DNA of 47,409 bases from a virus: IMG/VR virus record IMGVR_UViG_3300029736_000011; one strand, written 5' to 3'. The notes under the pieces are model-generated. The model had not been told where the DNA came from and did not search any database. It was given only the letters and a program-made list of their open reading frames with translations. Made by a program: the position numbers and the translations under genes. Below, in pieces: positions 100-47,409 of the stretch (its first letter is position 1; each line of letters opens with the position of its first letter).

Positions 100-438
100 G
101 GCGACATCAAAAAAGAGGATCGCGGAGACATCGTCCAGCAGTTCCAGACCGACCCGAAGACCACGGTCTTCATCGGCCAGATCGACACCGCCGGTACCGG
201 CATCACCCTGACAGCGGCAGACACCTGTATTTTTTACAGCGTCAACTTCAACTTCGCCACCTATAGCCAGAGCTTGAGCCGGATACACCGCATCGGCCAG
301 CACCACCCATGCACCTACATCCACCTGCTGGCAGAGAAGACCATCGACGAAACGGTGCTCCAGGCCCTGCAGAAAAAAGAGGATCTCGCCAAAACCGTGG
401 TCGACGATTGGAGGCAGCTATTCAGCGAGGGGGGATGA
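1..438 (+). CDS. SNF2/DEAD-like helicase, C-terminal (HelicC) part; continuation of 46366..47409 across the circular junction
   Basis: Frame open from base 1, stop at 436-438. FIGQIDTAGTGITLTAADTCIFYS and SRIHRIGQ resemble helicase motifs V and VI. Confidence 0.85.
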   Translation: MVIFARFIPEIHEIEALCEKTLRSAGMKAVAIYGDIKKEDRGDIVQQFQTDPKTTVFIGQIDTAGTGITLTAADTCIFYSVNFNFATYSQSLSRIHRIGQHHPCTYIHLLAEKTIDETVLQALQKKEDLAKTVVDDWRQLFSEGG

Positions 439-30445: not shown

Positions 30446-32272
30446 ATGGGATACGGCCCCGTAAATGCCCCCAGCTCCGGCGGCAGCAGCGAGGAACTGG
30501 AGGCCGTCCGCAAACTGGCCCAAGGGGCGGCGGACACTGCCAATACCGCAAAGAACACTGCAGACACCGCAAAGGACACCGCCGACGCCGCCCTGGAGGC
30601 TGCGAATGCGGCCAGAGACGTCGCCAACACCGCCAAATCCACCGCAGACAGCGCCCTGGCGCTGGCCGGTACCGCCAAGAGCACTGCCGACACCGCCAAG
30701 AGCACCGCCGACCAGGCCCTGGAGACGGCGAACACCGCCAAATCCACCGCAGACGCCGCAGCATCCGCCGCCGAAAAGGCCCAGCAGACCGCAGACGAAG
30801 CGGCCCAGAGCATCAAGGACATCACCAATACGATCAGCTCCACGCCGTCGCAGAACGGCTCCCTGGTCTACAACGCCAGCGTCCAGTCCCCCACCTGGAA
30901 CAGCTATAACCCGGAGCAGCTCACCCTGGGCGGCGTGACGGAGGGCACCAACGCCGGGGAGTACGAGGCGACCTTCACCCCGAAGGGAGAGTACGTCTGG
31001 AGCGACGGCACCCAGGACGCCCGGACGGTCACCTGGACGATCAAGCGGAAAACCGTCCAGCTGCCCGCTCAGAGCGGAAGCCTCACCTACACCGGCAGCG
31101 CCCAGTCGCCCACCTGGGACAATTACAGCGCCGTGGAGCTGGACATGGGCGGCACCACCAGCGGTACCAACGCCGGGAGCTATCAGGCCACCTTCACGCC
31201 CACAAGCAACTTCCAGTGGAGCGACGGCACCTACGGGGCCAAGAGCGCCGCCTGGAGCATTGGCAAGGCGGCAGGCTCCCTGTCCATCAACCCCACCACG
31301 ATGACGCTGGACGTATCGACCCTTCAGAAGACCATCGCGGTCACCAGGGCCGGAAACGGCGCGATCTCCGTGTCGGTAGACAACGCCGCCGTCGCGGAGG
31401 CCAGCCTCTCCGGCACCACCATCACCGTCACCGGCAAGGCCAAGGGCACCGCGAAGATCACGGTCTCCGTCGCCGCCGGTACCAACCACACCGCCCCGGC
31501 CAGCGCGGTCTGCACCGCCACCGTCAGCCTGCCCAGCAAAACGCTGGCCGACAACGACCCAGCCACCATCCAGGCCGTGGGCGCAGCTGGCACCGGGGCC
31601 AGCTACTGGGCGGTAGGCGACAAAATCGGCATCGCCGTGAACGGCACCTTCGGAGGCCTCACGCTGAACCAGACAGTCTACGCCTTCATCCTGGGCTTCA
31701 ACCACAACCAGAGCGTGGAGGGCAACGGTATCGACTTCCAGTTCGGAAAGACGGCGGACGGCAGAGACATCGCCTTTGTCCAGAGCTACGGCAGCACCGG
31801 AACCGGCTTCTGCATGAACACCACGAACACCAACTCCGGCGGGTGGAAAAACAGCCACATGATGAAGACCATCTGCCCCGCCTTCCTCAACGCCCTCCCG
31901 GCGGCGTGGCGGAACGCCATCAAAAACTGCACCAAGTACAGCGACAACTCCGGCGGCGGAAGCGACAACGCCAGCTACGTCACCGCCACCACCCAGAAGA
32001 TCTTCCTGCTGGCGGAGTTCGAGGTACACGGCACCCGCTACTACGCCAACAGCGCGGAGCGGAACTATCAGAAGCAGTACGACTACTACAAAAACGGCAA
32101 CAGCAAGGTCAAATACCAGCATAGCAGCACCGGCTCCGCCTGCCTTTGGTGGCTGCGCTCGGTCAATGCGACCAGCGCGGCGAACTTCTGCGTTGTGAGC
32201 ACAGGCGGGGGCGCGAACGGCTACGGCGCCTTCTTTTCGTATGGCTTCGCGCCGGGCTTTAAGGCCGCCTAA
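30446..32272 (+). CDS. Tail fibre / receptor-binding protein, DGR target 1 (C-terminal C-type-lectin/DUF6273-like variable domain)
   Basis: 608 aa. Ala-rich TAKSTAD repeats, then two repeated domains of about 70 aa plus a Big_2-like region, then the C-terminus CLWWLRSVNATSAANFCVVSTGGGANGYGAFFSYGFAPGF, which overlaps VR1. Confidence 0.85.
   Translation: MGYGPVNAPSSGGSSEELEAVRKLAQGAADTANTAKNTADTAKDTADAALEAANAARDVANTAKSTADSALALAGTAKSTADTAKSTADQALETANTAKSTADAAASAAEKAQQTADEAAQSIKDITNTISSTPSQNGSLVYNASVQSPTWNSYNPEQLTLGGVTEGTNAGEYEATFTPKGEYVWSDGTQDARTVTWTIKRKTVQLPAQSGSLTYTGSAQSPTWDNYSAVELDMGGTTSGTNAGSYQATFTPTSNFQWSDGTYGAKSAAWSIGKAAGSLSINPTTMTLDVSTLQKTIAVTRAGNGAISVSVDNAAVAEASLSGTTITVTGKAKGTAKITVSVAAGTNHTAPASAVCTATVSLPSKTLADNDPATIQAVGAAGTGASYWAVGDKIGIAVNGTFGGLTLNQTVYAFILGFNHNQSVEGNGIDFQFGKTADGRDIAFVQSYGSTGTGFCMNTTNTNSGGWKNSHMMKTICPAFLNALPAAWRNAIKNCTKYSDNSGGGSDNASYVTATTQKIFLLAEFEVHGTRYYANSAERNYQKQYDYYKNGNSKVKYQHSSTGSACLWWLRSVNATSAANFCVVSTGGGANGYGAFFSYGFAPGFKAA
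30528..30808 (+). repeat. Degenerate repeats with 21-nt periodicity encoding TA(K/N)xTAD heptads
   Basis: accgccaa(a/g)(t/a)ccac(c/t)gc(a/c)gac-like units recur through this tract. Confidence 0.6.
32130..32268 (+). repeat. DGR variable repeat VR1
   Basis: Aligned by hand to TR 32924-33062 (offset 794). There are about 26 mismatches, all opposite TR adenines, for example AAC to GGC/TAC/AGC and AAT to CTT/GTT/TTT/TAT. Confidence 0.9.
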
Positions 32273-40600: not shown

Positions 40601-42214
40601 CTACCGCCTTTCATGGAGCGGCAATGCCAGGATGAACACCGGGCCGACGAAGTAGATCTCCGTCCCAGGTTCGCCTGGCTCCCCTTTGGTGGAGGCAGGG
40701 GGAGCTAATACGAACCGCCCCTCCGCCCCGGCAACGGCCTCGGCATCCGCGACAAGCTCCATGTCGACCTCCGACCCCTTCCCGGAGTAGTTGAACGCCA
40801 CCTGGAGCCTATCGTCCCACAGATATACCGAATTCACAAAGGAATCAATGACCCTCCGCCTGAAAGCAGCATCCTCCAGATCACCGCCCCGGAACTTTTC
40901 AAACCAATAAACCACGAAGTCCCGCTCGATGTGCGTCTGGGCAGCCTCCTCCAGGGTGATGGCGTCCCGGAGCCGGGAGGACTCCGCCTCAAGTTCCACC
41001 AGCCGCCCCTTTGTTGTCGTGGTGATGATCCCGGCCTCGATGGCCCTCATGAGGTTTGCCGTGGATCTCTGGTTTTCGGAGAGCTGATCCCGCAGGCCAA
41101 GCAGAACGGCGGAGTTTGCCTCCCGCTCCTGGTAGGCCATGACCGCATCCGCCATCCACTCGATGACCTCCGGCTTCAACACATAGTCCAGGGTAGCCTG
41201 CACCACCACCCGCTCCAGCCAATCCCGCCCCACATTGGCCTTTGAGCAGCAGTGCTCCGTCCGGCGCTTTTGGCAGACATAGTAGTGGTGCAAAGCGCCG
41301 GAGCGGGCCGTGCCGGACACGCCAACCATTGGAGCGCCGCACAGGCCACAGAACAGCTTCCCAGTGAGCATATACTCTCCGTTTTCCCGATGCCGCCCCT
41401 GGGGATTTTTCTTGTTCTTCAGGCGCTCGCCCACCGCCAGGAACAGCGCCCGGTCGATGACCGGAGGGACGCCATCCTCAACCCGGACATCCCCAAAACG
41501 ATAAACCCCAACATAGGTCTCGTTCGTCAGCAGACGGTGGAAGCTATTCCTTCCCCAGAGACCGCCCCTCTTCGTTCGGATGCCCCGGCCATTCAAGTCG
41601 TTGGAAATCTCGACGAACGGGACGCCGTCTGCAACCTTGCGGAAGATTTCACGCACCACCTCCGCTTCCCCAGGATCAACGGCAAAGCGACCGTCCTCGC
41701 CCTTGCGGTACCCGAACGGGATGGAGCCGCTATTCACCTTGCAATTCATGGCATTATACCTCATCCCCCGCCGGATATTTTGCGACAGATTGGCGGAGTA
41801 ATACTCTGCGGAGCCTTCCAGGACGGACTCCAGCAAAATGCCCTCCGGGCCGTCTGGTATGGATTCCTTTGCATACAGAACCCGGACGCCGCACCGCTTC
41901 AGCCTGAACTTATAGGTGGCGGAGTCGTATCGGTTGCGGGCAAAGCGGTCAATCTTCCAGACAATCAGGTAGGCCCAGCGCCGATGAGCGGCATCCCGCA
42001 GCATCGTCTGAAACTGGGGCCGCTTATCCGTCATGCCGGAGAGCGCCCGGTCGGCGTAGACCTTTACCACCCGGAGGCCCAGGGAGCTGGCATAGGCCTC
42101 GCAGTCGGCTACCTGCTGCTCGATGGATACATCCCGCTGATTATGGGAGGAATAGCGGGCATAGATGACGCAGTCGCCATGGCAGCGGTCAATAGACAAA
42201 TCAAGCTCCATCAT
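40601..42214 (-). CDS. int: Large serine recombinase (integrase)
   Basis: 537 aa. VIYARYSSHNQ (catalytic Ser region), ...VWKIDRFARN, a recombinase domain, and the zinc-ribbon CGLCGAPM...YYVCQ. Confidence 0.92.
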   Translation of the reverse strand: MMELDLSIDRCHGDCVIYARYSSHNQRDVSIEQQVADCEAYASSLGLRVVKVYADRALSGMTDKRPQFQTMLRDAAHRRWAYLIVWKIDRFARNRYDSATYKFRLKRCGVRVLYAKESIPDGPEGILLESVLEGSAEYYSANLSQNIRRGMRYNAMNCKVNSGSIPFGYRKGEDGRFAVDPGEAEVVREIFRKVADGVPFVEISNDLNGRGIRTKRGGLWGRNSFHRLLTNETYVGVYRFGDVRVEDGVPPVIDRALFLAVGERLKNKKNPQGRHRENGEYMLTGKLFCGLCGAPMVGVSGTARSGALHHYYVCQKRRTEHCCSKANVGRDWLERVVVQATLDYVLKPEVIEWMADAVMAYQEREANSAVLLGLRDQLSENQRSTANLMRAIEAGIITTTTKGRLVELEAESSRLRDAITLEEAAQTHIERDFVVYWFEKFRGGDLEDAAFRRRVIDSFVNSVYLWDDRLQVAFNYSGKGSEVDMELVADAEAVAGAEGRFVLAPPASTKGEPGEPGTEIYFVGPVFILALPLHERR

Positions 42215-42725: not shown

Positions 42726-43214
42726 CTAAGATACTTCGGATGCGCCCCCGGCTTCTTTTTCAATGCCCAACTGGCGGTCGAGTTCGGCATGAAGATCCTC
42801 GGCGGACGGAGAGTGGCCTGGTAAGGCCGGAGAACCGGGCTCCACATCGCCAAAACCCTCCACGACCTCCCGGAGGAAATTCATGATGGTGCGTTGCGAA
42901 GACTCCGGAAGGCCGACCAGCTTCTCGATGAAGACATAGGTCTCGTGCGTCATTTGCGGGTACCTGGCAGCAAGAGCATCAAGCTCAGATGTCGGGGACG
43001 GGAGAAACATTTCCCCCTCTCCGGTTCGGAGCCAGTTCTCGTTGACGCCAAACTCCTTACATATCAGAGAGATCACCTGGCTCGACGGAGCACGACGCCC
43101 AGTTTCATATCCAGTTATCGTATTTTGGACAGAGCCGATTCGAGCGGCAAATTCCTGCTGAGTTAGGTCAAGAGACCTTCGGAGCTTTTTAATGCGCTCG
43201 TTCAAGAAAGACAC
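42726..43214 (-). CDS. CI-like repressor (XRE-family HTH)
   Basis: NERIKKLRRSLDLTQQEFAARIGSVQNTITGYETGRRAPSSQVISLICKEFGVNENWLRTGEGEMF. The start may instead be TTG 43205. Confidence 0.8.
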   Translation of the reverse strand: MSFLNERIKKLRRSLDLTQQEFAARIGSVQNTITGYETGRRAPSSQVISLICKEFGVNENWLRTGEGEMFLPSPTSELDALAARYPQMTHETYVFIEKLVGLPESSQRTIMNFLREVVEGFGDVEPGSPALPGHSPSAEDLHAELDRQLGIEKEAGGASEVS

Positions 43215-43291: not shown

Positions 43292-43320
43292 TTGACAAAC
43301 ACCGCGATGCGGTTTATACT
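43292..43320 (+). promoter_or_regulatory. Sigma70-type early rightward promoter
   Basis: TTGACA (43292-43297), 17 nt, TATACT (43315-43320). Confidence 0.65.
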
Positions 43321-43565: not shown

Positions 43566-43753
43566 GACCTAAGCCAAAGGTGCTGGCCACCGCCAGCGGC
43601 GGCATTGATACCAGGTCGATTCCTCAGCACATTAAAGAGAACCTGGCACAAGCCGCCTTTCGGAGCATCCTCCAGGCCTACAACGACCCGTTGGTGCGCT
43701 CGGATTACGAGCGATGGAAAGCAGGGCGTGGCTCCGAAAGAATGAATGCGTGA
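43562..43753 (+). CDS. Hypothetical protein
   Basis: 63 aa. Overlapping start and stop codons with both neighbours. Confidence 0.5.
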   Translation: MRPKPKVLATASGGIDTRSIPQHIKENLAQAAFRSILQAYNDPLVRSDYERWKAGRGSERMNA

Positions 43754-44537
43754 GAGAAAGCGAGGATGCGGAATGGACTGGGAATCCATTGAAAAGGAAA
43801 TCGGACAGGGCGCACTCGAATCAGCCCAGGCGGCTCAGCAGCGCATAGCCGACCGGAGGGCAGCTCGCCGTAAACGGCAGCGCCGGAGGCGGCTCGTGCA
43901 GCTGGCCACCGCCGGATCTGCAGTGGCCATCGCCATCGGCGTGGTCTTTATGAGTGCGGCCAGCGAAAGGAGCCGGACGCCCACGGCTCCTTTGCCTTCC
44001 CAAGAGGCCAGCACCTCGGATCAGACGCAGTACGCCTACATAGAGCCGACCGCAACGCCGGAGCCTACCCCGGAGGCCACCGACGCAACGAAGCTCCTGG
44101 TGAGCGTCCCTTTGGATGCGGAGACGCAGACCGCCATATTTGAGCTTTGCGGCAGCGACCCGGACACCTTCTGCGCCGTCATGGCTATCTCCAAGACGGA
44201 AAGCAACTTCGACACCGACGCCGTCGGCGACAACGGCGTCAGCATTGGGATGGCGCAGATCAACACCACCTGGCAAACGGGCCGCATGGAATCCCTCGGC
44301 GTTACCGACCTGACAGACCCGGTACAATGCGCAACCGTCTGCCTGGACTACCTCCGGGAGCTTTCGGAGGATTACGGTTTCGGATGGGTCGAAGACCACG
44401 GCCTGTACCTCGCCTACAACATGGGGCCTGGAGGGGCCAGGAACGCTATCAACAGCGGAGTATCATCCAGCAAATACAGCAGGGCCGTCCTTTCCGCATA
44501 CGGAGAGTACGCTGCAGAGATGGAGGTGTCGGAATGA
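43746..44537 (+). CDS. Membrane-anchored lytic transglycosylase (SLT domain) protein
   Basis: TM helix LATAGSAVAIAIGVVFM. MAISKTESNFD (catalytic Glu-Ser), SIGMAQIN and YLAYNMG are SLT-like. Confidence 0.7.
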   Translation: MRERKRGCGMDWESIEKEIGQGALESAQAAQQRIADRRAARRKRQRRRRLVQLATAGSAVAIAIGVVFMSAASERSRTPTAPLPSQEASTSDQTQYAYIEPTATPEPTPEATDATKLLVSVPLDAETQTAIFELCGSDPDTFCAVMAISKTESNFDTDAVGDNGVSIGMAQINTTWQTGRMESLGVTDLTDPVQCATVCLDYLRELSEDYGFGWVEDHGLYLAYNMGPGGARNAINSGVSSSKYSRAVLSAYGEYAAEMEVSE

Positions 44538-44908
44538 AGATCGCCCTGCAGGGAAACACCCTCCTTATCAAAGAAGCCGATAATGTCCAGTTCGCGGTCA
44601 TCAAGAGCTGGAACAAGATGCGCTGGGACAGGAAGACGCAGCTGCTCAGCGGAACGGCGGACATGGAACTGCTGGACAAGCTGGCCAGCATCGTCCAGCT
44701 GCCCCCGGCCATCGCCCAGATCAGGGCGCAGCTCCACCGTGTCCAGGAGGCCATAGACAGCGAGCGAGTGAATCCACACCCGAAGCCCCTCGCCGATTAC
44801 CCCGTGAAGATGTCCCTCTACGACCACCAGGTGCGGGGAGCCAATATGTGCCTGGTCGCCTTTGGATGGGCCAGCCCCGATGCAATCGAACGGAGGAATG
44901 AACCATGA
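44534..44908 (+). CDS. SNF2-helicase N-terminal fragment (ends just before motif I)
   Basis: The start MKIALQGNTLLIKEADNVQF...W...K resembles phage SNF2 N-termini. The sequence ends ...MSLYDHQVRGANMCLV, followed by 13 unrelated residues and a stop. Confidence 0.55.
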   Translation: MKIALQGNTLLIKEADNVQFAVIKSWNKMRWDRKTQLLSGTADMELLDKLASIVQLPPAIAQIRAQLHRVQEAIDSERVNPHPKPLADYPVKMSLYDHQVRGANMCLVAFGWASPDAIERRNEP

Positions 44909-45273
44909 GCGAAGCCATGACCATCAACGACATCATCAACCAGCTGGGAAGCCTTCGGGCAAGCAGTGCGGAGTTTGCCAAAAGCGACCCGGAGAACGAA
45001 ATCTGGCAGGCCGACGTCACCGCCTGCGAGACATCCATCCGCATCCTCGCCGCCCTGAGCGGGGAGGGCTGCACCGACCTGGAGACCACCCTGGATTTCC
45101 TGCAGGACTACAATTCCCTGGCGAAGCAGTACCAGACCATCCACCGGAAGTACGAGGCCCCAGGGAAGCCCACCCACAAAGACGGCGTCTGGCATTGCCC
45201 CGCCTGCAACAGCCGCGTCCAAATCAACCATACCCACTGCCACCGCTGCGGCAAGAAGATCGGGTGGCGTTGA
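44905..45273 (+). CDS. Hypothetical protein with a C-terminal zinc ribbon
   Basis: ATGA overlap with the previous ORF. 122 aa. Contains CPACNSRVQINHTHCHRCG. Confidence 0.6.
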   Translation: MSEAMTINDIINQLGSLRASSAEFAKSDPENEIWQADVTACETSIRILAALSGEGCTDLETTLDFLQDYNSLAKQYQTIHRKYEAPGKPTHKDGVWHCPACNSRVQINHTHCHRCGKKIGWR

Positions 45274-45331
45274 GTGGGTGGGTGCGCACTTATTCAGACC
45301 CTTAACAGCCTGACTGGCTGAAGGAGCATAG

Positions 45332-46312
45332 ATGAAAGGAATGAACGACATGAAAAAGCCCTTGAAAGTTTTTCTTTCCGGCCCCATCTCGTCAAGGCTG
45401 GAAACCTACAAGGCGGAGTTTGATGACGCCGCACGGATCGTCAGCGAGGCAGGCCACCTGCCGCTGAACCCGGCCACCCTGCCCAGCGGCATGGAGAACC
45501 GCGACTACATGAGGATCTGCCTCGCCATGCTGGACAGCGCAGACCTCCTCCTTCAGCTCCCCGGCTGGGGCAAGAGCGCCGGAGCAATCGCAGAGCGCAC
45601 CGTCGCTATGAAGACCGGCGTCGAGAGCCTGACCCTGGAGGATTTCATCCGGGAGTACGTCCATAGAGCTGGCGCAACACCCGTCCGCACAATCAGGGAT
45701 GGAGCCATCGATCTGGCAAACCTGAAAGCGGCGATCCGGAACGGGGATGGCCCGGAGATGATCCGGCCCCACGACGAACTGGACATCCTCCTGGACACTG
45801 AAAAAACCATCACCGTGACTTGCGGATTTGTCAACAGCGAAATGGCACGCTTTATTTTCAAAGACTGCTATGACGAATGCGAGATGAACGATGACAACAC
45901 CAATCAGACCGGATACTTCGGAAGCAAGGGCCGCAGGCACGTCCTGGAGGACATTTATCCCCATCTGCCCCAGGAATTGCGGAGCATCATCCGGCCACGC
46001 GAGATCGTGGAGACCATCGGCGGCGAGGTAAAGAAATACGAAGACCCGCTCTGGTTGCCATCTGCAACAGATCTCTTCGGAGCACCAGAGGATAAATGGT
46101 GGCCGGATGAGCCTGGCAGCTTCCAGCTCCCCATCTTCCTGAAGGAGCGAGACCGGGTAAAAGAGTGCCCCAACAGAGGCACATGGTATTGGTGGCTGCG
46201 CTCGGTCCGTGCGACCGACACGGCGGACTTCTGCGGTGTGAGCACGGACGGGGGCGCGGACTACGACGGCGCCTACTTTTCGTTTGGCTTCGCGCCGGGC
46301 TTTGACCTCTAA
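45332..46312 (+). CDS. DGR target 2: DUF4406-like (nucleoside 2-deoxyribosyltransferase-fold) N-terminal domain fused to a DUF6273/C-type-lectin-like variable domain
   Basis: N-terminus: KVFLSGPIS...YMRICLAMLDSADLLLQLPGWGKSAGAIAERTVA. C-terminus: WYWWLRSVRATDTADFCGVSTDGGADYDGAYFSFGFAPGF, which overlaps VR2. Confidence 0.8.
   Translation: MKGMNDMKKPLKVFLSGPISSRLETYKAEFDDAARIVSEAGHLPLNPATLPSGMENRDYMRICLAMLDSADLLLQLPGWGKSAGAIAERTVAMKTGVESLTLEDFIREYVHRAGATPVRTIRDGAIDLANLKAAIRNGDGPEMIRPHDELDILLDTEKTITVTCGFVNSEMARFIFKDCYDECEMNDDNTNQTGYFGSKGRRHVLEDIYPHLPQELRSIIRPREIVETIGGEVKKYEDPLWLPSATDLFGAPEDKWWPDEPGSFQLPIFLKERDRVKECPNRGTWYWWLRSVRATDTADFCGVSTDGGADYDGAYFSFGFAPGFDL
46187..46305 (+). repeat. DGR variable repeat VR2 (remote)
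   Basis: Aligned by hand to TR 32938-33056 (offset 13249). There are about 27 mismatches, all opposite TR adenines, for example AAT to CGT/GGT/TTT and AAC to GAC/TAC/GGC. Confidence 0.9.
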
Positions 46313-46329
46313 TCCAAAAATCACAAAAT

Positions 46330-46351
46330 CCCCGGCGCTTCTGCGCCGGGG
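46330..46351 (+). other. GC hairpin with a 4-nt loop downstream of VR2
   Basis: CCCCGGCGC-TTCT-GCGCCGGGG, a perfect 9-bp stem. It lies 24 nt after the end of VR2. Confidence 0.6.
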
Positions 46352-46365
46352 AAGCAAGATAGAAG

Positions 46366-47409
46366 GTGATCCACACGACACCCGTGAATAAAGGCTTCGG
46401 CTTCCTCTTTGAGATGGGCTGTGGCAAGACCCTGACGGCCATCGCCGTGGCCGGAGCCGGATACCAGCAGAAGCGGATCAGCAGGGTGCTGATCGTCGCC
46501 CCCACCTCGGTGGTCGCCGTCTGGCCCAAAGAGTTCCAGGATTACGCAGCCTTCCCCTACACCATCCGCACCCTGCTGGGAACGAAGCAGCAGCGTCTCA
46601 AGGCCCTGGCAGACCTTGAGCGGTTCCCATACCCACACCTGAAGGTGGCGGTGATCAACTACGAGAGCACCTGGAGAGAGGAAATATTCGACGCCCTCCT
46701 GGACTTCGACGCAGACCTGGTCATCGCCGATGAGAGCCAGCGCATCAAATCCCACGACGCAGCCCAGAGCAAGGCCATGCACCAGCTGGGGGACAAAGCC
46801 CGGTACAAGCTCATCCTCTCCGGCACCCCGGTACAGAACGAAGCCGTAGACCTCTGGAGCCAATACCGGTTTTTAGACCCTACCATCTTCGGGACGAACT
46901 TCTACGCCTTCCGCAGCCGCTACTGCGAGATGGGCGGCTTCAACCGCAAACAGATCGTCCGGTACCGTGACCTGGACACTCTCATCCGAAAGGAACACAG
47001 CATCGCCTACCGCGTGACCAAAGAGGAAGCCCTCGACCTGCCGGAGCAGACCTTCGAGAGCCGCTACATCACACTGAGCCGCTCGGAGCGTAACCTTTAC
47101 GACCGGCTCCGGCGGGACAGCTATGCGGAGCTGGCAGACGGCGGCACCATCACCGCCACCACAGTTCTGACGAAGCTCCTGCGCCTGCAGCAGTTCACCG
47201 GCGGCTTCCTGGCGGAGGATGACGCCATCCAGCCGAAGCTGGTCAGTCGGGGGAAGCTTGACGCCCTGGAGGACATCCTCCAAGACTACGTGGTCGAGGG
47301 CAAAAAGAAGCTGGTAATATTCGCCCGGTTCATCCCAGAGATTCACGAGATCGAGGCTCTGTGCGAAAAGACGCTCCGCTCCGCCGGAATGAAAGCCGTG
47401 GCCATCTAC
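46366..47409 (+). CDS. SNF2/DEAD-like helicase, ATPase core; 3' end runs off the window and continues at base 100
   Basis: The frame is open from TAG 46360-46362 to the window end. Contains FEMGCGKT (motif I), VIADESQRIK (motif II) and LSGTPVQN (motif III). There is no ATG upstream of motif I; candidate starts are GTG 46366 and GTG 46384. Confidence 0.85.
   Translation, partial: MIHTTPVNKGFGFLFEMGCGKTLTAIAVAGAGYQQKRISRVLIVAPTSVVAVWPKEFQDYAAFPYTIRTLLGTKQQRLKALADLERFPYPHLKVAVINYESTWREEIFDALLDFDADLVIADESQRIKSHDAAQSKAMHQLGDKARYKLILSGTPVQNEAVDLWSQYRFLDPTIFGTNFYAFRSRYCEMGGFNRKQIVRYRDLDTLIRKEHSIAYRVTKEEALDLPEQTFESRYITLSRSERNLYDRLRRDSYAELADGGTITATTVLTKLLRLQQFTGGFLAEDDAIQPKLVSRGKLDALEDILQDYVVEGKKKLVIFARFIPEIHEIEALCEKTLRSAGMKAVAIY
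47311..47409. repeat. Terminal overlap, second copy (identical to 1-99)
   Basis: Read directly. Confidence 0.95.

Follow-up and report, generated by a model that had tools for sequence, protein, structure and literature searches.

The original genes-in-pieces case is the NrdA/mobE locus of Aeromonas phage Aeh1 (Friedrich et al. 2007), in which, as the case is cited in PMC2677866, a conserved enzyme has been split by a free-standing endonuclease gene, with no intron or intein, into two polypeptides that reassemble. In phage T4, the topoisomerase is split by a MobA element that comes with a bypass cassette (gene 39/mobA/gene 60; bioRxiv 10.1101/2022.08.31.505936 and work cited there). Fractured genes with split inteins are a further known form, where the two parts of an interrupted replication gene enclose a free-standing gene (Dassa et al. 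2009, PMC2677866). Here we report on a SNF2 helicase gene that lies in two open reading frames (ORFs), N and C, in the virus record IMGVR_UViG_3300029736_000011, and we consider it probable that these are the parts of a stable genes-in-pieces helicase of a temperate phage of gut Clostridia, which is the best explanation of the data. Like the Aeh1 enzyme, this helicase is a conserved protein split with neither intron nor intein; whereas the Aeh1 case, as far as that citation describes it, concerns a single phage with the endonuclease in place, the present split is ancient and widespread and encloses a zinc-ribbon gene and variable cargo. With the split-intein genes it shares a broken replication gene and a free-standing gene between the halves, but it has no intein halves and no splice-junction residues. 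The phage is related to Faecalibacterium phage FP_Epona (MG711462; Cornuault et al. 2018, PMC5883640), its closest relative with a cultured host and likewise a temperate phage with a large serine recombinase and a diversity-generating retroelement (DGR), whose published description does not mention the helicase. FP_Epona is 74% identical over N+C, shares the split and also has this zinc-ribbon gene behind N; its gap, in contrast, holds small zinc-finger ORFs and no DGR target.

The window, that is, the whole stretch of DNA that was analysed, is 47,409 nucleotides (nt) long, and its bases 1-99 repeat 47311-47409 exactly. The genome is thus circular and complete at 47,310 bp, and C, which reaches the end of the window, runs on from position 100 to its stop. 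The split region is laid out as follows.

44534..44908, plus strand: N, the N-terminal helicase fragment, 124 amino acids (aa), from ATG 44534 behind the Shine-Dalgarno (SD) sequence GGAGGTG at 44522-44528
44905..45273, plus strand: Z, a zinc-ribbon gene, 122 aa
45332..46312, plus strand: D, a DUF4406+DUF6273 protein and DGR target, 326 aa
46174..46306, plus strand: VR2, the variable repeat inside D, second target of the DGR
46329..46352: GC hairpin with a 10-bp stem and a 4-nt loop, downstream of VR2
46360-46362: in-frame TAG ahead of C
46366..47409, plus strand: C, the SNF2 core, first part, starting at GTG 46366 or GTG 46384
100..438, plus strand: continuation of C past the circular junction, with the Helicase_C lobe and the stop at 436-438

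The original prediction, made from this DNA alone, had taken ORF 44534..44908 for the N-terminus of a SNF2 helicase, and this is borne out by its alignment to two intact helicases, that of Thermoanaerobacterium phage THSA-485A (Tsac_2878) and that of a Gemmiger formicilis prophage, P0195 (572 aa; NCBI name DEAD/DEAH box helicase; proteins carry P numbers and related loci L numbers here). When N and C were joined, a tblastn search of 50,697 phage records matched 3,300 of them, and in 1,334 records a single place covered at least 80% of the query; contiguous alignments were found, with THSA-485A spanning residues 22-557 of N+C unbroken and the listed Vibrio phage helicases spanning the query unbroken from residue 83, so that in the latter there is no interruption across the split point. 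In pairwise alignments, N corresponds to aa 21-108 of the THSA-485A protein and C takes over from aa 108 (56% identical), and N corresponds to aa 1-111 of P0195 (43% identity) and C to the part from aa 121 (59% identity). The intact helicases (THSA-485A Tsac_2878; Gemmiger P0195/P0308) have the same domain order at 50-59% identity and differ in being single ORFs of 547-572 aa with no Z nearby, and the P0195 prophage has the same replication-module layout as here, with serine recombinase, repressor, small ORFs, helicase, DUF7307 and DnaG/DUF927 primase. Judged by these alignments, the SNF2 gene is truly in two pieces that align end to end with intact phage SNF2 helicases. A protein search with P0195 yielded copies of 99-100% identity alone, and thus no deep alignment for folding the whole helicase.

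C carries a SNF2-related N lobe and a Helicase_C lobe with all helicase motifs intact, as expected of the SNF2 family of superfamily 2 (SF2). Its first part matches the Pfam SNF2-rel_dom profile (E = 5e-32), the match starting at position 25 of the 290 in the profile. The joined translation, which is 460 aa long from GTG 46366, matches PF00176 at E = 1e-31 and PF00271 (Helicase_C) at E = 9e-18. Prefixing N to C did not lengthen the Pfam SNF2 match, because the first 24 positions of the profile are too weak. The helicase stands in a phage replication module with DUF7307 and DnaG/DUF927 primase genes; against the SNF2 proteins of the defence systems Zorya (ZorD), DISARM (DrmD) and Dpd it shows generic SNF2 similarity alone, far below the NCBIfam cut-offs, and membership in an anti-phage defence system was dropped on both grounds.

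The break itself can be placed closely. In N, an N-terminal beta-beta-alpha-beta-beta-alpha domain is followed by a long helix, by the Q-motif helix (HQVRGANMCLVAF) and by a conserved FGW..P tail; the fragment is modelled by AlphaFold2 (AF2) with a predicted local distance difference test score (pLDDT) of 90 and a helix at residues 97-109, and ends ...YDHQVRGANMCLVAFGWASPDAIERRNEP before its stop. C begins at beta-1 and Walker A (MGCGKT, 46414-46431); the HQ helix and motif I are thus on separate polypeptides, in different frames and with motif I lying 1.46 kb downstream. The segment after the HQ region had been described as 13 unrelated residues; in fact 16 residues follow ...CLV, and F110 and G111 are invariant and P115 nearly so among 34 homologues. 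Since this AFGW... segment is conserved and also present in the junction-intact proteins P0195, P0144 and P0189, it is native helicase sequence and not read-through. Where the N tail AFGWASPD... stands, intact relatives continue ...NMALRAFGALDAKTPGGGFGELFEMGCGKT, and P0195 reads ...HQIRGANMALRAFGALDAKTPGGGFGELFEMGCGKT over the junction. In an alignment of P0195 to its closest solved structure, the SsoRad54-like 1Z63 (E = 3e-39), the N tail maps to where the helix behind the Q motif ends, and C begins at GFG...MGLGKT, a segment which we take to be strand beta-1 plus the P-loop of the SF2 fold. As located by these alignments, the break is in a variable loop of RecA lobe 1, between the Q-motif helix and strand beta-1/Walker A. 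The expected junction between Q motif and Walker A therefore stands, whereas its placement at ANMCLV does not: with the N tail native and found in intact relatives, the true break lies about 4-10 residues further on. Two other ideas on N were given up, namely that its FGW tail duplicates beta-1 (GFGF), as intact relatives hold both segments in series, and that its N-domain is a SMARCAL1-type HARP domain, for which Pfam and PHROGs gave nothing and Foldseek against the PDB gave no match below E = 0.4.

Among related loci, 113 have both halves, and in every one of them the split is at the same loop and N lies upstream of C on the same strand. These comprise 28 viral contigs found with N (gap 520-3144 nt), 24 further viral contigs from an independent search with C (735-3924 nt) and 61 Clostridia genomes, one per species, found with a profile of N (64-4884 nt, median 1267); every one of the 28, the 24 and the 61 is split, and the genome hosts include Oscillospiraceae, Lachnospiraceae, Faecalibacterium, Anaerotruncus, Blautia, Dorea and Lachnoanaerobaculum. 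Against 1.84 billion protein representatives the N profile gave 199 matches; of the 150 that were listed, almost every one is a protein of 110-130 aa that stands alone. Proteins continuous over the junction are the full-length P0195, P0194 (with an unrelated C-terminal third) and the truncated P0144, P0185, P0189 and P0239. In the searched GenBank phage collection, N or Z was found in FP_Epona alone, where the break falls at this same site and the annotation of N reads hypothetical protein; a megablast search with 43700-47409 found no match among phages. Within the relatives sampled, the split thus appears as an old and conserved one that is fixed in every close relative. The 124-aa hypothetical protein encoded in several hundred gut phage and prophage sequence clusters is the missing N-terminus of a SNF2 helicase, and helicase annotations of about 450 aa are incomplete without it. 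We also noted a degraded prophage (L051/L052) in which a junction-intact helicase is cut short at 296 aa, with radical-SAM, DGR reverse transcriptase and lysis genes directly behind it.

This distribution bears on a cause that the original prediction had raised, here taken as the recent insertion of a discrete cassette of about 1.5 kb, carrying the DGR target, into a helicase gene that had been intact until then. The DGR target does lie in the gap, and D is restricted to the lineage of this phage and one 55%-identical relative (L085), as such an insertion would have it. However, the split is there in 113 of 113 loci, most of which have no DGR target (FP_Epona, L026 and L013 among them), Z is conserved independently of D, and the DNA between the halves is not one cassette: other genes part D from Z or C in L003-5 and L047-49, with two extra ORFs between D and C in the latter. 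Target-site repeats are missing as well. By Pfam and PHROG, D matches DUF4406 (nucleoside 2-deoxyribosyltransferase-like), its N-terminal half, fused to DUF6273, and a stand-alone DUF4406 gene sits in the gap of at least nine other loci (L018, L087, L088, L092, L097, L102, L107, L113 and L160), so that D looks like an old resident of the gap that gained the DUF6273 variable domain. We regard a recent cassette insertion as very improbable and as already refuted by the split relatives without a DGR target. The content of the gap had been read correctly as a zinc-ribbon ORF, the second DGR target and the GC hairpin; from the end of the hairpin, however, it is 13 nt to 46366 and 31 nt to 46384, not 15 nt to the resumed frame.

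That both halves still function, as had been suggested, is supported by the ratio of nonsynonymous to synonymous substitution rates (dN/dS), which is below 1 for each: 0.05-0.32 for N over dS of 0.15-2.3, and 0.14-0.19 for C of this phage against L058 and FP_Epona. On these ratios, both helicase halves are under purifying selection and are kept functional. A decaying pseudogene, inactivated by insertion, might be suspected from the in-frame stop, the frame change and the missing ATG of C, yet the low dN/dS of both halves, with dS up to about 2, together with the intact helicase motifs rules it out, and the arrangement is conserved across Clostridia families; we give decay next to no credence, the selection analysis having refuted it already. 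The locus thus shows two marks of genes in pieces, ORFs that align end to end with an intact orthologue and purifying selection on either piece, and the split helicase probably joins that known class, in which it is unusually old and widespread.

The second route that had been proposed, a rejoining of the halves, is neither needed nor supported. A group I or II intron, a split intein or a ribosomal bypass would account for the exact abutting of the halves in alignments to intact proteins, and relatives do appear to recode at another site, inside Walker A (see below). However, stops intervene between N and C, which are read in different frames, the gap holds genes that are conserved across relatives and overlap one another in FP_Epona, so that no non-coding room is left there, and its length (64-4884 nt) and content vary while the junction is constant. 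An Rfam scan of 44300-47409 at E<=1 found no intron, and splice sites of group I type sought by hand (U at the 5' site, G at the 3' site) gave no sensible frame save a forced join that deletes two residues. For inteins there was no Pfam match and no conserved nucleophile or splice-junction residue in the N tail or the C leader, which in the viral loci found with N are 8-20 aa and 1-10 aa long, respectively, and thus too short for a split intein to be possible. We judge rejoining to be highly unlikely. Much the same evidence speaks to an excision of the gap from the DNA by site-specific recombination in the lytic cycle, in the manner of the skin and nifD elements: the phage encodes a large serine recombinase (40601..42214) that could serve such a purpose, but no direct repeats flanking the gap were found, the varying gap again meets a constant junction, and among the N homologues listed, 120 in number and 62-96% identical, none has the length that a fusion to the core would need. 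Excision seems to us hardly credible.

Z is a conserved feature of the gap, usually as its first gene. It follows N directly in most related loci, often with overlapping stop and start, as in this phage, where the N stop and the Z start share ATGA at 44905-44908, and it has no counterpart in loci that carry an intact helicase. Its Pfam zinc-ribbon matches are weak; it has a C-terminal CPxC...CxxC ribbon, and in the AF2 model (pLDDT 88) three helices form a bundle that is accompanied by a RanBP2/NZF-like zinc ribbon; a comparison with the PDB gave nothing significant. The idea that Z might be a degenerate HNH endonuclease found no support in this fold. After Z, the cargo varies by locus and includes C5 cytosine methyltransferases, an RNase T-type exonuclease and a Myb-like protein, besides the small zinc-finger ORFs of the FP_Epona gap. 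HNH_3 endonuclease genes lie in the gap of L039 and L063-66, HNH relics in L010, L013 and L101, and a NUMOD4 ORF in L003-5, and in several lineages the HNH genes or relics sit directly 5' of C. Remnants of deleted genes, such as a methyltransferase tail in L026, and minimal forms, N-Z-C or N-C (L026, L013, L101), are found as well. Halves that are adjacent with no insert, a possibility raised along with the original prediction, were found in rare cases alone, e.g. in L101 (a Lachnospiraceae metagenome-assembled genome, about 740-810), whose gap of 64 nt is the smallest and whose N ORF ends ...ERGVI before its stop, with the C-terminus seen in the HNH genes of L039; L101 looks like a deletion scar that would have fused N to an HNH relic. 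On this comparison of loci, the gap is a tolerated slot where accessory genes come and go, and with its methyltransferase and nuclease genes and a DGR target it behaves like a hot spot.

Given these observations, we propose that an ancestral single gene, a form that persists in THSA-485A and the Gemmiger prophages, suffered a break in the surface loop that links the Q-motif helix to beta-1/Walker A. The likeliest cause may have been the invasion of a free-standing homing-endonuclease gene, an origin made plausible by the HNH genes and relics directly upstream of C. N, with its DNA-facing N-domain and the Q-motif helix, and C, with both RecA lobes, would be translated separately from one early operon and might associate non-covalently into an active ATPase, in which N would give the Q-motif helix in trans. 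N would be translationally coupled to Z, which might either contribute a third subunit or be left over from the invader. A DUF4406 gene already resident in the gap may then, in this lineage, have gained DUF6273 and come to be diversified in trans by the phage DGR. An SF2 ATPase evidently tolerates a break between Q motif and Walker A, and the locus offers a natural system for the study of a Q motif in trans.

Several points weigh against this proposal. N stands without C within 4.5-6 kb in five genome loci (L087, L093, L116, L143 and L153) and in L019, so that N may act by itself too; in these loci C has been moved or lost, unless the gap is very long. This favours a sub-functionalisation in which N would be an independent DNA-binding factor and C a helicase without Q motif, as do P0149, an N-Z fusion protein without the NMxxxFG tail, and P0121, a protein with two tandem N-domains. 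On the other hand, N retains the invariant HQ and the helix packing on lobe 1, it is upstream of C on the same strand in the 113 loci, and C always begins exactly at beta-1 in the viral loci found with N, with no segment to replace the Q motif; we therefore think sub-functionalisation unlikely. The second point is a neighbour-joining (NJ) tree of N domains, rough, short and with no support values, hence suggestive only, that puts the junction-intact P0144 amid split forms and might point to re-fusion or to repeated splitting. Third, there is no endonuclease in the gap of this phage itself, and Z has no nuclease fold. Finally, the start of C is uncertain. As the original prediction had it, the core resumes at 46366/46384 behind the TAG with no ATG, and its candidate starts are GTG only: GTG 46366 has upstream of it a weak SD, which is buried in the 3' arm of the hairpin, and GTG 46384 lies 12-17 nt past the strong SD-like GAAGGTGATCC. 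The L047 counterpart starts at an ATG two codons upstream of the equivalent Val. With these points taken into account, we still hold two separately made parts of one helicase to be the probable state of affairs.

A side observation concerns Walker A. In this phage, the Walker A DNA (46414-46431, ATGGGCTGTGGCAAGACC; equivalent region 46411-46431) is uninterrupted. Many C orthologues, in contrast, carry an insert of 4-10 nt within the Walker A codons, which is led by TAG after a sense codon and after which the original frame resumes (L010, L018, L039, L063-70, L074, L077-79, L081, L083, L088, L095, L100, L101, L103-105, L110, L139 and L161), as in the interrupted stretch ...ATGGGCTGCGGTTAGGCAAGACC... 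of relatives. A first class lies between G and K of GCGKT, with the pattern GG|TTAGG|N read as GGT TAG GN AAR, and takes the 4-nt form TAGC in L063-66. In L074, L088, L095, L104 and L105, only six open codons precede the Lys in the downstream frame, and none of them is ATG, GTG or TTG; in L161 there are 13, again with no start before the Lys. Over 435 downstream codons, dN/dS was 0.03-0.075 at dS of 0.9-1.6 (five carriers; L063, L067, L069, L077, L079 and L083, pairwise), in carriers that have a possible start nearby and are distinct from the six start-less lineages. Given the lack of a start before the Lys and the conserved downstream codons, a ribosomal hop or a frameshift seems to be required: a +5 hop from GGU to GGN would yield the wild-type MGCGKT, and a -1 shift would yield MGCGLGKT. 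A second class lies between E and M of FEMGCGKT (TAGTT, TAGAA, TAGCCGTT, TAGCCGAA and TAGCAAAGGG), where the native ATG follows the insert, and thus stop-restart is possible. A Walker A insert is present in each of the five loci whose gap holds a full HNH gene (5/5). By analogy, the insert appears to resemble the MobA-proofing bypass insert of T4 gene 60, although it is much shorter, and such micro-inserts may represent a new, compact form of programmed recoding tied to homing endonucleases.

The likeness to T4 39/mobA/60 extends to a DNA enzyme that is split within its catalytic domain into two ORFs, and the T4 enzyme, an essential one, works; to an HNH endonuclease gene found between the halves in part of the genomes, here those of relatives, while other genomes have lost it or keep a decayed form; to a small insert in conserved coding DNA just downstream, here in the relatives, that calls for recoding, as in gene 60; and to signs of re-fusion, here in P0144. 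The differences are that the present case concerns a SNF2 helicase and Clostridia hosts, that the N tail is native with no element-encoded extension, that the split is fixed in all close relatives sampled whereas the T4 case is recent and patchy, that the gap is a multi-gene cargo slot of up to 4.9 kb, and that this phage itself has neither the endonuclease nor the bypass insert. Here we speculate that all of this might be combined into a second, independent case of the T4 mobA/gene 60 type, in which an endonuclease fracture became fixed, the helicase would be a multi-subunit motor with its Q motif in trans, possibly bridged by Z, the gap would serve as a slot for co-expressed accessory genes, including the DGR-diversified fusion, and the Walker A insert GGT-TAG-GN of the relatives would be endonuclease-proofing and passed by a 5-nt hop or a -1 shift. 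In so composite a form we put this forward tentatively and hold it to be somewhat doubtful.

The split helicase region is carried in an early rightward operon, downstream of the recombinase, the repressor-like gene and a promoter-like site. These and the parts of the DGR that lie outside the split region are as follows.

40601..42214, minus strand: large serine recombinase
42726..43214, minus strand: repressor-like gene
43292-43320: strong promoter-like site, upstream of N
43746..44537: SLT-domain gene, 263 aa
32925-33057: TR, the template repeat of the DGR
32131-32263: VR1, the first variable repeat

D has the features of a DGR target, namely a variable repeat at its 3' end, adenine-specific mismatches and a GC hairpin thereafter. 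VR2 differs from TR at 30 positions, of which 22 are TR adenines and the remaining 8, non-adenine, are confined to the repeat ends, and among L005, L006 and L007, whose flanking genes are more than 95% identical, it varies at TR adenines, which points to active diversification by the DGR of its second target, 13 kb from TR. This target is a fusion of enzyme domains and not a tail fibre, and an enzyme-like DGR target inside a replication module is unusual. The stem of the GC hairpin is kept in L003 and L046 while the loop differs (TTCT vs GAAA/TGAAA), and no T-run follows it on the plus strand; on the minus strand, with a T-rich tail, it scores as an intrinsic terminator. TAATCCAAAAATC comes after VR1 and VR2 alike, and a weak promoter-like site at 46302-46329 overlaps the end of D.

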